From Escherichia phage vB_EcoM-Sa45lw: a stretch of 64,000 bases of DNA. Positions 3,742-61,472 of this stretch are shown here, one piece after another. A model generated the notes under the pieces. That model had not been told where the DNA came from. It searched no databases and was given only the letters and a program-made list of their open reading frames with translations. A program made the position numbers and the translations under genes. How positions within the stretch are numbered: the stretch's first letter is position 1; each line of letters begins with the position of its first letter. The stretch lies in the sequence record MK977694.1; one strand, given 5' to 3'.

Positions 3742-4872
3742 TTATGGATAAGTATAGATGATACCAGTTTCTAAAGCAGTTTTATGAATGATGTATCCAT
3801 TGCGTGATTCTTGAACATCAACTTCTGGATAGTCTTTCATCATCTTCTGAAGAGTGTAACGATGCAGGTAGTATTTACTGTCTGGATCTTCAGTTTTCCA
3901 ATCTTTACCTTCTTCGGTCATTTTTTGGATTTCATCCATAACCCACCAACCGCACCAGATATAAGCTGAAGTACGATGTGGAAGAGGATGAACATAAGGC
4001 AATTCACCTTCTGGTTCCGGAGCAACTTTATCAGTTACCTGAACTTGGCCTGTTGCTTTAACTGTTTTACTATCATAGTCGGTTGCTGTAACGACAGCAG
4101 TAACTTCAATAGTTTGACTTCCAATAGATGAGGTGTCAACGGTGTATACGTTAGTTGACCCTTCTACAGGAGAAGAATCTTTCTTCCATGAATAAGTAAT
4201 TTGCGCTGCTTCAGGTGCGCCAGTGACATTAGCGGTAAATGTAGCTGAAGCATCTTGCTGAACGTTAATAGAAGGAGGAGTCAATGTAACCTGCGGATTC
4301 ATTGTCTTCTTATTAACTGTCAATGATACTTCATTAGAAGTAACTTCCTTTTCATTGTAATTTTCTGCTGTTACTTGGGCTACGCATTTAATTCTTTTTA
4401 CTCCACTTGTAGTTGGAGTATAGCTAAATGTAGAGTTAGTTTCTCCACCAACTTGAGAATCATCTACATACCATTTATATGTAGCAGACGCTCCATCAGG
4501 TTGAGAAGCTAAGGCAGCAGTAAATTGAACTGGGGTTCCAATTACTCCTGCTGGAGGACTATTAGGAGTTACTGCCAATGTAGTTGTCTGAGTTTTATTT
4601 TTAACCGTTATAGTAGTTGATGCTTGAGCTGTTTCAGGACTACTATCTGCAACTTGGTTTGTTGCAACAACTTTAATAGTCTTTTGACCAGCAGGACCTT
4701 TTAATACATAATCAAAAGTTGCTTCAGACCCATCTTGTGGAGCATTATCTACACTCCAAGCATAAGTAATAGTTCCACCTCCAGTTTCACCACTGGGTGC
4801 AGCAGTAAACTGCTTGGTTTCATCAATAACCCCTGTCGGTGTTTTAGGAGTTATATCAACTGTAAAAGCCAT
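3742..4872 (-). CDS. hoc: Highly immunogenic outer capsid protein Hoc
   Basis: 376 aa; N-terminus MAFTVDITPKTPTG; three tandem Ig-like repeats visible in the protein. Confidence 0.9.
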   Translation of the reverse strand: MAFTVDITPKTPTGVIDETKQFTAAPSGETGGGTITYAWSVDNAPQDGSEATFDYVLKGPAGQKTIKVVATNQVADSSPETAQASTTITVKNKTQTTTLAVTPNSPPAGVIGTPVQFTAALASQPDGASATYKWYVDDSQVGGETNSTFSYTPTTSGVKRIKCVAQVTAENYNEKEVTSNEVSLTVNKKTMNPQVTLTPPSINVQQDASATFTANVTGAPEAAQITYSWKKDSSPVEGSTNVYTVDTSSIGSQTIEVTAVVTATDYDSKTVKATGQVQVTDKVAPEPEGELPYVHPLPHRTSAYIWCGWWVMDEIQKMTEEGKDWKTEDPDSKYYLHRYTLQKMMKDYPEVDVQESRNGYIIHKTALETGIIYTYP

Positions 4873-16070: not shown

Positions 16071-16077
16071 TTTGTGT

Positions 16078-16131
16078 TCCTCATGTTATGTCAGTAAGAC
16101 TACTATAACACAACACGAGGGACTTGTAAAC
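16078..16131 (-). repeat. 54 bp promoter-leader repeat, copy 1
   Basis: Identical to 31872-31925. Confidence 0.9.
16102..16131 (-). promoter_or_regulatory. Early promoter (GTTTACA, 17 bp, TATAGT) upstream of alt.-3
   Basis: sigma70-like hexamers with TG-extended -10; part of a 54 bp block repeated at 31872-31925. Confidence 0.6.
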
Positions 16132-24264: not shown

Positions 24265-24630
24265 TTAAATATCAAATTCGTTAAGAACTACATCAAAGAT
24301 TGCTTCAAGATGCTCAGGTTTAGCTCTGTTACTCAAAATATGACGAATCCAAGTTTTAACCAGAAGCTTACGATTAGCGCCATTCCAGCAAGGATGGGTC
24401 CCTAAATCGCGTTGACGAAAATCATCATCCAGAGCGATTTTGAAGTTTGAACCTTCCATTGTGATTGAAACCGTGATGCCATTTTCAAATCGCATATAAA
24501 CGTAGTTAGGAGTCATATACTGTTCAATTTCGCATACTGATCCATTTTGATGTTTCCAAAGGCAAATAGTATCAATAGAACCTGCAATACCATTAGAAAC
24601 ATATTTACGTTCAAAGTTGATGTAGTTCAT
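24265..24630 (-). CDS. Hypothetical protein
   Basis: 121 aa ORF, early promoter upstream. Confidence 0.55.
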   Translation of the reverse strand: MNYINFERKYVSNGIAGSIDTICLWKHQNGSVCEIEQYMTPNYVYMRFENGITVSITMEGSNFKIALDDDFRQRDLGTHPCWNGANRKLLVKTWIRHILSNRAKPEHLEAIFDVVLNEFDI

Positions 24631-24667
24631 TTTTATTCTCCGAGATGTTTAATTGCGGTACAGGTAT

Positions 24668-24696
24668 ATAATATCATATCCTGTACCAAAGTAAAC
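24668..24696 (-). promoter_or_regulatory. Early promoter (GTTTAC, 17 bp, TATTAT)
   Basis: Hexamers on - strand; -10 embedded in the 8 bp inverted repeat GGTACAGG/CCTGTACC. Confidence 0.55.
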
Positions 24697-24698
24697 AA

Positions 24699-25031
24699 TT
24701 ATTTTACTACTTTCCAGTGCTTCATGTCAAGTTTACCAACTTTTTTCATCTTCTCAATCAAACGTTCGGCACGTTGGCGAGCTGTAACATAATACCATTC
24801 GCCTAATTCATTTTGTTCAATTTTTCCAACGATTACTGTATTCAATTCATAAATCCAACCAGTAAAGAAATTATGAACTTGAATTGTAAAGGTGAAATCT
24901 GTTCCCATACCTTCTGTTGTTTCTACTTCAATAATATCACCTTCAATTGCCATTAAGAACCACATAGTTTCATCATATTTACCATTGAAGCATTTAGTCT
25001 TAACTGCAGCGTTCAGATTAATCGTTTTCAT
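24699..25031 (-). CDS. Hypothetical protein
   Basis: 110 aa ORF. Confidence 0.55.
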   Translation of the reverse strand: MKTINLNAAVKTKCFNGKYDETMWFLMAIEGDIIEVETTEGMGTDFTFTIQVHNFFTGWIYELNTVIVGKIEQNELGEWYYVTARQRAERLIEKMKKVGKLDMKHWKVVK

Positions 25032-25058
25032 TTTATTCTCCTTTGTTTGTGTAAGATA

Positions 25059-25088
25059 ATACTATCACAAAGGAACCATACTGTAAAC
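25059..25088 (-). promoter_or_regulatory. Early promoter (GTTTACA, 17 bp, TAGTAT)
   Basis: Hexamers on - strand upstream of ORF 24699-25031. Confidence 0.5.
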
Positions 25089-25117
25089 AACTTTATGCAA
25101 TCTTTGGAAAATAAAAA

Positions 25118-25138
25118 AGGACTCCCGAAGGAGTCCTT
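25118..25138 (-). terminator. Rho-independent terminator
   Basis: AAGGACTCC-ttcg-GGAGTCCTT followed by TTTTTTATTTT on - strand. Confidence 0.75.
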
Positions 25139-27811: not shown

Positions 27812-28044
27812 AGTACGCCATACACCCTTTGTGCTTCAACTAATCCATCAAAATCCAATTTGAGATGTGTTATTTGGTCACCATCACCTGGATTCACAAT
27901 TACTAATACTGAACGAGGAGTTTCTGTAATAACACGAACCGATGTTTCTGGAAATCGTTCAGAAACCTTATTTACCAATTCTTGAGCAAATAGTTTAACT
28001 TTTTCTTGGAATTCTTTAACAGTAATTGGTTTTTCGCTTAGCAT
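27808..28044 (-). CDS. Hypothetical protein
   Basis: 78 aa ORF. Confidence 0.5.
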   Translation of the reverse strand: MLSEKPITVKEFQEKVKLFAQELVNKVSERFPETSVRVITETPRSVLVIVNPGDGDQITHLKLDFDGLVEAQRVYGVL

Positions 28045-28565
28045 GTTGATCCTAGCTCCTTACTTTCAACGTTTTTAACTAATTTGACAGAAACTAATTC
28101 AGCATCTTGGGTAATCATTACCGGGCCTTCTTCATACTCTTCAAGATATTCTAGAGCTTTGTTTTTAGCTTCTTCCTTCGTATCAGTTTGAGCATAGATA
28201 TAGAACATACAACCAGTAATACCTACTACTTTCCACTTAATTTCTTTATCAGTTTTAATTTCAAATTTACTGACAGAATCATCTTTTTGAACTTCTTCGA
28301 AAAAAGAATATTCTAACATATAAGTAATTGAAAATAACGGGCTAACTTTATAGGATTCGCCCATTACATCAACAGCTTTATACCAACAGTCATCAATTTC
28401 GCGTTTAATGCTAATAACATTTTTCGCAGGATCTATTTTTACTTTAAATGAATTTTCCCCAATAAACTGGGCAATTCGTTTATTAGCCCCGCAAGTTTCA
28501 TTAAAAATATCTTTATACCCAGTTTTAAAGCGATAAACCTTATCTTCTTCAAACCATTCGCTCAT
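28038..28565 (-). CDS. Hypothetical protein
   Basis: 175 aa ORF; SD GAGGA; early promoter upstream. Confidence 0.55.
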   Translation of the reverse strand: MSEWFEEDKVYRFKTGYKDIFNETCGANKRIAQFIGENSFKVKIDPAKNVISIKREIDDCWYKAVDVMGESYKVSPLFSITYMLEYSFFEEVQKDDSVSKFEIKTDKEIKWKVVGITGCMFYIYAQTDTKEEAKNKALEYLEEYEEGPVMITQDAELVSVKLVKNVESKELGSTC

Positions 28566-28595
28566 TTCAATTTCCTCGTTTGTTTTGGTAGAGCT

Positions 28596-28625
28596 ATAAT
28601 ATCACAACTCTACCGTAAAGTAAAC
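28596..28625 (-). promoter_or_regulatory. Early promoter (GTTTAC, 18 bp, TATTAT)
   Basis: -10 flanked by 7 bp inverted repeat GGTAGAG/CTCTACC. Confidence 0.5.
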
Positions 28626-28627
28626 TA

Positions 28628-28903
28628 TTAAATTGCTTTGAATTCTGATGTCTGTGATTCAAAACGAATGTCGCCTTTGATAACTAGCTCAGCATCAAGA
28701 CCGAATACAACAATGATATGCGCGGAACCTGGATACAACGTGATGGCAACAGAATCCACCTGGTCTGGAAGCAAAGTGTTCAATACATGAGTCACTTGAG
28801 CATGAATTCGAAGCTCGGCTGCGTTATCAAGCTTTTCAAACATATTATTAGCGATAATTTGACTAAACACTACTTCTACAATTTTAGAATAAGTCGGAAA
28901 CAT
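28628..28903 (-). CDS. Hypothetical protein
   Basis: Start at ATG 28903 with GAGG SD (91 aa). Confidence 0.5.
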   Translation of the reverse strand: MFPTYSKIVEVVFSQIIANNMFEKLDNAAELRIHAQVTHVLNTLLPDQVDSVAITLYPGSAHIIVVFGLDAELVIKGDIRFESQTSEFKAI

Positions 28904-31867: not shown

Positions 31868-31871
31868 AAAG

Positions 31872-31925
31872 TCCTCATGTTATGTCAGTAAGACTACTAT
31901 AACACAACACGAGGGACTTGTAAAC
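31872..31925 (-). repeat. 54 bp promoter-leader repeat, copy 2
   Basis: Identical to 16078-16131. Confidence 0.9.
31896..31925 (-). promoter_or_regulatory. Early promoter (GTTTACA, 17 bp, TATAGT) upstream of alc
   Basis: Part of 54 bp block identical to 16078-16131. Confidence 0.6.
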
Positions 31926-41601: not shown

Positions 41602-41631
41602 ATAGTACCATAAAGCCTTATGTTTGTAAAC
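41602..41631 (-). promoter_or_regulatory. Early promoter (GTTTACA, 17 bp, TACTAT) immediately downstream of the gene 32 terminator
   Basis: Near-identical to the cassette at 58309-58338. Confidence 0.55.
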
Positions 41632-58308: not shown

Positions 58309-58338
58309 ATAGTACCACAGTATGCTTTGGTTGTAAAC
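58309..58338 (-). promoter_or_regulatory. Early promoter (GTTTACA, 17 bp, TACTAT) for motA
   Basis: Shares a ~40 bp near-identical upstream block with the cassette at 41602-41665. Confidence 0.55.
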
Positions 58339-61414: not shown

Positions 61415-61442
61415 TTTCTGTTCCTCCGTAGTTGATAGTTGT

Positions 61443-61472
61443 ATAATACCACAGAGGAACAGTCTTGTAAAC
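61443..61472 (-). promoter_or_regulatory. Early promoter (GTTTACA, 17 bp, TATTAT)
   Basis: Same architecture and flanking ACAACTATCAAC as the other cassettes. Confidence 0.5.

Follow-up and report, generated by a model that had tools for sequence, protein, structure and literature searches.

Inverted repeats around the -10 element of two early promoters of a T4-type phage as probable stems of read-through RNA hairpins

In a stretch of 64,000 nucleotides (nt) of Escherichia phage vB_EcoM-Sa45lw (sequence record MK977694.1), designated here as the window, two perfect inverted repeats each enclose the extended -10 element of an early promoter. These repeats, referred to as site 1 (upstream of gene 30.7) and site 2 (downstream of cd.3), raise the question of whether such symmetry serves a protein that binds DNA, a structure in RNA, or nothing at all. 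The most probable answer, to which we assign a probability of roughly 60%, is that an RNA hairpin is embedded in each of the two sigma-70-type early promoters, with the repeat as its stem, and that it forms a boundary hairpin on read-through RNA. The -35/-10 spacer would supply the 5' arm, the extended -10 would become the inner stem and loop, and the 3' arm would span the transcription start. RNA made from the own promoter would lack the 5' arm and be unable to fold, and RNA reading through from upstream promoters (via gene 30.8 or cd.3) would fold a hairpin of 12–13 bp. Such a hairpin would mark the cistron boundary on the read-through RNA, with selection acting on the sense RNA.

Two promoter repeats and their predicted RNA folds

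The window comes from a Tequatrovirus, a T4-type phage; the 7 kb surrounding the two sites are 98.9% identical to Shigella phage Sf23 and ~97% identical to T4, and the genes around them are coded on the minus strand. Genes 30.8 and 30.7 are 68 nt apart; site 1 lies in this gap and is the promoter of T4 gene 30.7. Site 2 is located between cd.3 and a gene for 175 amino acids (aa; Sf23 gp63-like), and is the promoter of the gene after cd.3. Both sequences are found unchanged in T4, and site 2 is named Pe133295 in the T4 GenBank record and annotated as "predicted early promoter" in the record of Yersinia phage fPS-2.

Direct reading of the sequence found both perfect repeats where an earlier sequence-only reading of the window had placed them. 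On the plus strand, site 1 consists of GGTACAGG (24657–24664), a 15-nt spacer (24665–24679), and CCTGTACC (24680–24687), and site 2 of GGTAGAG (28587–28593), a 14-nt spacer (28594–28607), and CTCTACC (28608–28614). On the minus (coding) strand, TGATATTATA is present inside both repeat spacers, and the sites read GTTTACTTT-GGTACAGG-ATATGATATTATATA-CCTGTACC and GTTTACTTTAC-GGTAGAG-TTGTGATATTATAG-CTCTACC, respectively. Promoter motif scans returned TTTACT-16-TATTAT at site 1 and TTTACT-17-TATTAT at site 2, both with TG at -15/-14, which bears out the claim of the same reading that the repeats enclose the extended -10 of early promoters. The 5' arms are at about -26 to -19, in the -35/-10 spacer, and the 3' arms are just past the -10. 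Transcription starts (~24661 and ~28589) were placed by the usual 7-nt distance after the -10. The -35 hexamer of site 1 is 3 nt past the stop codon of 30.8 (24699–24701), and the stop codon of cd.3 is at 28628–28630. Coordinates of the features are collected in Table 1.

In the sense RNA, the stems continue into the extended -10 via A-U and G.U pairs, giving 13 bp with one bulge at site 1 and 12 bp at site 2. The folding energy is -16.1 kcal/mol (z-score -6.1) at site 1 and -16.3 kcal/mol (z-score -7.0) at site 2, none of 200 shuffles was equally stable at either site, and both hairpins were retained when folded in contexts of 96–101 nt (101 nt for site 1). Folds of the DNA are weak, with -8.4 and -5.0 kcal/mol for the sense strand of sites 1 and 2, -7.6 and -4.9 kcal/mol for the antisense strand, and loops of 12–15 nt. 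The hairpins start 11–13 nt past the upstream stop codon and end 15 nt (site 1) and 9 nt (site 2) before the Shine-Dalgarno sequence. As the predicted start is inside the 3' arm and the own RNA is without the 5' arm, folding of the hairpin is restricted to read-through RNA. The sequence-only reading had considered a hairpin in read-through transcripts that occludes the downstream start; the structural part of this idea is supported by the folding energies, the z-scores, and the start inside the 3' arm, but the occlusion is not borne out at either site. No Rfam family matched the hairpins, and the sole overlap was a chance microRNA-like (miR-like) match with E = 0.61.

A 7–8 bp inverted repeat by itself is common in this AT-rich DNA. 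A count of perfect repeats with arms of 7 bp or more and spacers of 10–20 nt gave 81 in the window, compared with 53.4 +/- 6.6 in shuffled sequences, and it is position and surroundings that count rather than perfection. The shuffle rate corresponds to ~0.008 repeats expected around one given -10 hexamer and ~0.09 over the 11 early promoters of the window; three repeats bracketing a -10 were observed (24657, 25039, and 28587). What goes beyond chance is the position on the -10, the conservation over four genera amid diverging flanks, three compensatory pairs at site 2, and the genome-wide rule described in the next section.

At site 1, Tequatrovirus, Mosigvirus, Dhakavirus, and Gaprivervirus all have the same arms, GGTACAGG and CCTGTACC. 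Around these arms, the loop is variable, insertions and deletions have rewritten the leader, and the upstream gene differs. Of 14 distinct upstream sequences, 13 give a hairpin of -14 to -15 kcal/mol; the other one carries a C-to-U change leading to a G.U pair, plus an inner mismatch. Among nine distinct orthologs, 98.3% of the alignment cells are paired, and one inner pair alternates between A-U, U-A, and U.G. In more distant phages the element changes; in Citrobacter phage CF1, its place is taken by an 11-bp hairpin, CUCCGUUGUAU/AUACAACGGAG, which hides the Shine-Dalgarno sequence of 30.7. A metagenome scan for gp30.7 yielded nine loci and no new arm variants.

Site 2 reads GGTAGAG/CTCTACC in Tequatrovirus and GGTGGAG/CTCTACC in most Mosigvirus genomes, where the A-to-G change produces a G.U pair and pairing is by wobble only. 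In Dhakavirus, it is GGTAGGAC/GTCCTACC, where three pairs in a row have changed (A-U to G-C, G-C to A-U, and U.G to C-G). In an alignment of 12 sequences, both sides are changed at three pairs, and 81.7% of the cells pair, compared with at most 54% with a slid partner. The covariation score was 0.303 versus 0.242 and was reached by 3 of 500 shuffles; slid controls gave at most 0.119. A comparison of the stems with orthologous promoters, which the sequence-only reading had proposed, thus did not refute them: the arms are invariant at site 1 and covary at site 2.

Two records are peculiar at site 2. The T2 copy (about 4108–4187 of the T2 piece) has lost 2 nt of the -10, which reads TATTAG instead of TATTATAG, with both arms intact. 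According to the T4 GenBank record, the 14-nt loop was once reported as its inverted complement (T4 133300–133313, corresponding to window 28594–28607). The flipped loop had no exact match in IMG/VR, and the best of 663 phage records matched the flipped-loop query with 96.5% identity, equal to the native loop. A polymorphism was rejected, as no deposited genome has the flip, and the report is most likely an old and corrected sequencing or cloning artefact due to the repeat.

Table 1. Features of sites 1 and 2 and of related promoters in the window.
Feature	Position	Strand	Basis or remark
Site 1, -35 hexamer TTTACT (part of GTTTAC) of the 30.7 early promoter	24690..24695	minus	motif scans; identical in T4
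Site 1, 5' arm GGTACAGG, in the -35/-10 spacer	24680..24687	minus	invariant in all orthologs, four genera
Site 1, extended -10: TG (24675-24676) and TATTAT (24668-24673)	24668..24676	minus	predicted inner stem and AUAU loop
Site 1, 3' arm CCTGTACC	24657..24664	minus	spans about -3 to +5 of the predicted start (~24661)
Site 1, full predicted RNA hairpin, 13 bp, one bulged A, AUAU loop	24657..24687	minus	folding
Site 1, Shine-Dalgarno GGAG (24638-24641) and ATG (24628-24630) of 30.7, outside the hairpin	24628..24641	minus	
Site 2, -35 hexamer (TTTACT), early promoter following cd.3 (T4 Pe133295)	28619..28624	minus	motif scans; T4 and fPS-2 records
Site 2, 5' arm GGTAGAG, in the spacer	28608..28614	minus	variants GGTGGAG (Mosigvirus) and GGTAGGAC (Dhakavirus)
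Site 2, extended -10: TG (28603-28604) and TATTAT (28596-28601)	28596..28604	minus	predicted inner stem and loop
Site 2, 3' arm CTCTACC	28587..28593	minus	spans the predicted start (~28589)
Site 2, full predicted RNA hairpin, 12 bp including three G.U pairs, AUAU loop	28587..28614	minus	folding, covariation
Site 2, Shine-Dalgarno GAGG (28574-28577) and ATG (28563-28565) of the 175-aa gene, outside the hairpin	28563..28577	minus	
Spacer–Shine-Dalgarno complementarity at other early promoters	25038-25075; 61418-61462; 16076-16123; 31870-31918	minus	

A second strong sigma-70 match, TTGACA-18-TAAAAT (11/12), is present on the minus strand at 24701–24730, at the end of gene 30.8 and 35 bp upstream of site 1, and it is the annotated promoter in one phage record. 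A transcript from it would begin just 5' of the site 1 hairpin, which would become a 5'-terminal stem-loop. Site 2 is without a counterpart of this match.

Complementarity at other early promoters

Early promoters of the window were defined by motif, and 11 were recognized. The sequence-only reading had held that those other than sites 1 and 2 lack such symmetry; this did not stand, since six of the other nine (16130, 25087, 31924, 40628, 44931, and 61471) have a helix enclosing the -10. In four of the 11, the spacer is paired with the promoter's own Shine-Dalgarno sequence: 16130, 25087 (gene 30.8, TCCTTTGT/ACAAAGGA), 31924, and 61471 (CTGTTCCTC/GAGGAACAG). Four others have a bracket that ends before the Shine-Dalgarno sequence, namely, site 1 (24695), site 2 (28624), 40628, and 44931, the last one weak. 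A small hairpin inside the spacer is present at 41630 and 61959. The helix at 58337 is marginal (-5.6 kcal/mol), and this promoter was counted as being without a bracket.

The Shine-Dalgarno sequences of 16130, 25087, 31924, and 61471 are predicted to be fully paired in read-through RNA. In the own transcript, they are predicted to be open at 25087, 31924, and 61471, and still paired (0.09) at 16130. Because the 3' arm of these sibling promoters is the Shine-Dalgarno sequence, which is meaningful in mRNA only, the sense RNA is taken as the level at which the stems are to be read.

Two of these promoters belong to near-identical cassettes on the minus strand, 16 kb apart (16076–16130 and 31870–31924; AGTCCCTCGTGTTGTGTTATAGTAGTCTTACTGACATAACATGAGGA). 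The same pair is present in T4 at 123092 and 136335, and these are duplicated regulatory cassettes before different genes.

The complementarity was evaluated over the whole T4 genome, the early regions of JS98 (Dhakavirus), and the window. The duplex energy of each spacer with its own downstream 32 nt was compared with that of chimeras in which the spacer was combined with downstream segments of other promoters, a control that preserves composition and positional consensus. The spacer-leader duplex in T4 (30 promoters) has a mean of -11.4 kcal/mol versus -6.9 kcal/mol in chimeras, with -14 kcal/mol or lower reached by 40% versus 2.4%. The respective energies are -12.2 and -7.1 kcal/mol in the window (11 promoters), and -10.4 and -7.5 kcal/mol in JS98 (31 promoters), where 26% versus 3% reach -14 kcal/mol or lower. 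None of 2000 permutations reached the observed mean in T4, in the window, or in JS98. Spacer-leader complementarity is therefore genome-wide, and the two flagged repeats are instances of a general promoter property. Differences between related promoters agree with pairing: the paralogous T4 promoters 20611 and 57989 have two compensatory C-G to U-A differences, and the arms of the dexA and rnlA promoters differ between T4 and its JS98 orthologs yet remain complementary.

With shuffled spacers, the mean accessibility of the Shine-Dalgarno sequence in read-through RNA rose only from 0.25 to 0.29 (p = 0.23) for T4 promoters; for those of JS98, the rise was from 0.21 to 0.26 (p = 0.05). The number of strongly occluded sites dropped from 14 to 6 in T4 and from 14 to 2 in JS98. 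Spacer reversal is a poor control, as UCUCC reversed is still anti-Shine-Dalgarno. A general claim of occlusion for early promoters is only moderately supported.

Alternative readings and known classes of elements

A DNA-level element could be an operator for a dimeric repressor or activator, as the sequence-only reading had proposed, or a cruciform that exposes a single-stranded -10 and so tunes promoter strength. The site 1 arms are indeed conserved in sequence, beyond what complementarity needs, and the half-sites are about two helical turns apart, flanking the -10. However, no half-site is common to sites 1 and 2 or to other promoters, the arms differ at every promoter, those of site 2 covary, and one lineage pairs through G.U only; the weak DNA hairpins (energies and loops given above) would make extrusion of a cruciform unlikely. 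All that the two sites share is GGTA...TACC, which was tried as a common operator motif and discarded, as it is not enriched in the window (11 versus 9.7 expected) or in T4 (28 versus 25.8). The operator idea is rejected, and we regard any DNA-level role as very improbable. The stems could also have no selected function and be a by-product of quasi-palindrome mutation, cassette recombination, or chance. Perfect repeats of this size are common in the window, the cassettes are recombination junctions, and templated mutation can alter both arms together and so mimic covariation. This explanation is nevertheless quite unlikely given the three -10 brackets seen against ~0.09 expected, the real spacer-leader pairs that beat chimeras in three genomes, and site 1 arms that stay constant over four genera next to a rewritten leader.

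Among explanations at the RNA level, the authors who described the class of promoter-early stem-loops (PeSLs; see below) read such hairpins as terminators or attenuators that stop or reduce incoming RNA polymerase and make the gene dependent on its own promoter. The hairpins of sites 1 and 2 are stable and just past the upstream stop codon, and a stem-loop of this class from RB49/phi1 lowered lacZ expression about like the rrnB T1 terminator (PMC2839356), but the RB49 stem tested is G/C-rich, unlike those of sites 1 and 2. The G+C-rich stem followed by a U run that characterizes an intrinsic terminator is absent from both sites, as the upper stem is AU-rich and no U tract follows (tails GCAAUUAAAC at site 1 and AAAACAAAC at site 2). 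A terminator scan detected neither hairpin and, on this strand in the region, returned only 25138–25117. The presence of this canonical terminator nearby indicates that the phage uses standard ones where it terminates. Sites 1 and 2 are not standard terminators, as the scan shows, and attenuation of the kind proposed for PeSLs appears unlikely here. The canonical terminator itself (25117–25138, minus strand), which separates 30.9 from 30.8, consists of GGACTCCTTCGGGAGTCC and a T run with a UUCG loop, and it is an annotated terminator in phage G29. Immediately downstream of it is an early promoter with an anti-Shine-Dalgarno spacer. Translational occlusion of the downstream start by the read-through hairpin has its best examples in the siblings 25087, 31924, and 61471, where the unpaired probability of the Shine-Dalgarno sequence is 0.00–0.01 in read-through and 0.70–0.95 in own RNA (0.00 versus 0.95 at 25087, and 0.00 versus 0.74 at 61471). 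In an extended helix at site 2, AAAUUG, located between the Shine-Dalgarno sequence and the AUG, is paired with the end of cd.3, which lowers the unpaired probability of the Shine-Dalgarno-to-AUG stretch from 0.75 to 0.43. But this extension lies in coding sequence and would be opened by ribosomes finishing cd.3, and the Shine-Dalgarno sequence of site 2 is mostly open in either RNA (0.64 in read-through versus 0.83 in own). That of site 1 is no less accessible in read-through RNA (0.50) than in own RNA (0.34), and at both sites the arms stop short of it by the distances given above. Occlusion by these two hairpins is accordingly doubtful, and the RNA hairpin is retained without it.

The boundary hairpin on read-through RNA, which we prefer to these alternatives, has its own difficulties, and the following weigh against it. 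The outer eight pairs of site 1 never vary, and are uninformative on structure versus sequence recognition. Klebsiella phage SmallBear keeps the 3' arm of site 1 but has lost the 5' arm, so that the hairpin is not universal, and in VR7-type genomes the bracket of site 2 is replaced by a small spacer hairpin. The covariation at site 2 tracks lineages, and it could represent a few events or a single one, such as a templated quasi-palindrome mutation. Mutation of this type was first modelled from T4 frameshift mutations. A check on the strand of action found G.U pairs in the outer helices in 28 of 382 cases for the sense and 18 of 353 for the antisense orientation (p = 0.23). The function of non-occluding hairpins at sites 1 and 2 is one that we infer. 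Finally, the stems of phage PST are placed "just upstream" of the promoter by a figure legend in PMC4122927.

The kind of element is already known. PeSLs, which combine an early promoter with a stem-loop, were defined in RB49 and phi1 (Arbiol et al. 2010, PMC2839356), with subclasses in which the stem is between the -35 and -10 or is "overlapping the -10 box"; their cassettes recombine (PMC2839356), and mini-circles as a product of this recombination count among the traits of the class. They were extended to PST/T4, with the consensus TTTACW-N17-TAYWAT (Comeau et al. 2014, PMC4122927). Site 2 matches this consensus, and site 1 matches both of its hexamers with a spacer of 16 nt. An AT-rich upstream region is found at both sites (AT fraction of the upstream 25 nt of 0.68 at site 1 and 0.76 at site 2), as are a sigma-70-like early promoter, a stable stem overlapping the -10, a Shine-Dalgarno sequence and ATG on the 3' side, and an association with insertions and deletions. 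Sites 1 and 2 thus belong to the published PeSL class, in the subclass with the stem overlapping the -10. With the PeSLs of RB49 and phi1 they share this architecture and the location in variable early regions, at the edges of insertions and deletions. The stems differ in composition, being G/C tracts in RB49/phi1, whereas those of sites 1 and 2 are of mixed sequence, run through G.U pairs into the -10, and are followed by no U tract. The PeSL papers contain no discussion of a start inside the 3' arm, with folding in read-through RNA only, or of siblings with the Shine-Dalgarno sequence as 3' arm.

T4 genes e, soc, 49, and I-TevI have hairpins that conceal the ribosome binding site and enclose a late promoter, and all cases of promoter-in-hairpin control known to the 2010 reviews are late genes (PMC3014915, PMC2988022). 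The logic is shared, as the 5' arm is upstream of the internal start (predicted for sites 1 and 2), and long RNAs fold while promoter-proximal ones do not. In contrast to those late promoters (TATAAATA), the promoters of sites 1 and 2 are early and of sigma-70 type. The 3' arm of the late-gene hairpins includes the Shine-Dalgarno sequence or AUG, whereas at sites 1 and 2 it stops short; here, the siblings 16130, 25087, 31924, and 61471 are the ones that match. No description of an early-promoter version of this design was found, only those for late genes, and earlier descriptions may exist. Intrinsic terminators likewise have a stable hairpin just past a stop codon, but sites 1 and 2 differ from them in the missing U tract, the AU-rich upper stem, and the lack of a scan match, and a true terminator is 450 bp off (25117–25138). 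Hairpins that stabilize 3' ends, such as REP-type elements, block exonucleases at cistron boundaries and normally do not overlap a promoter. Sites 1 and 2 resemble them in their intercistronic position without a termination signal, and at site 1 the RegB GGAG of 30.7 is just downstream; they differ in that their hairpins overlap a promoter. The GGAG of 30.7 is reported to be a RegB cleavage site in T4, and one used experimentally (PMC9409239).

Recombination at the cassettes and meaning for T4-type phages

The cassettes are clearly recombination junctions. T2 is without gene 30.8, and its junction is in the GGAGAATAAAA leader common to the 30.8 and 30.7 cassettes (T2 piece 1069–1181; window 24630–25090); as a result, 30.7 of T2 is now behind a 30.8-type promoter with an anti-Shine-Dalgarno arm, and site 1 is gone. 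The 175-aa gene (window 28038–28565, minus strand) is present in Sf23, RB32, JS98, and VR7 and not in T4. Among close relatives, it is present or absent as an exact ATG-to-ATG unit after the site 2 cassette, and in genomes without the gp63-like gene, homology restarts at the ATG following the cassette. T4, T2, G8, and several Mosigvirus genomes have cd.2 directly after the site 2 cassette, and in many genomes the upstream gene is swapped at the -35 edge. The type of arm is interchangeable in evolution, as the ribosome binding site of 30.7 is free in T4 and hidden in CF1 and T2. The 30.8-type promoters of phi25-307 and VR5 contain TAGACTTGTACC and TAGACATGTACC, which nearly copy the 3' arm of site 1 but have no matching 5' arm, and the 30.8 leader of VR5 is the 30.7 leader of JS98-type phages. 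These promoters look like chimeric cassettes from recombination inside promoters.

For sites 1 and 2, the hairpin on read-through RNA might be a barrier that guards the upstream message from 3' exonucleases after cleavage in the leader, the GGAG of 30.7 being a known RegB site. It might also shield AU-rich promoter sequence or be a weak attenuator. Beyond these two sites, we consider it possible, but only as a tentative generalization, that they are the non-occluding form of a general design of T4-type early promoters in which the spacer doubles as a 5' arm present on read-through RNA only. In roughly a third to a half of the promoters, the 3' arm would be the gene's own Shine-Dalgarno sequence; such a gene would be efficiently translated only from RNA of its own promoter, and would be silent on long transcripts after early promoters are shut off.

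By itself, the finding has a modest consequence: two conspicuous repeats are assigned to a class already known, and the notion that T4 early promoters have a hidden repressor falls away. Should spacers of early promoters routinely contain an arm complementary to the leader or the Shine-Dalgarno sequence, a single 60-nt cassette would couple translational control to promoter sequence. This would help to explain how many early proteins cease to be made despite continued read-through transcription, and would account for the conserved spacer sequences of early promoters. The design of T4-based expression cassettes would be affected as well, and so would the way in which gene shuffling at these junctions is read.

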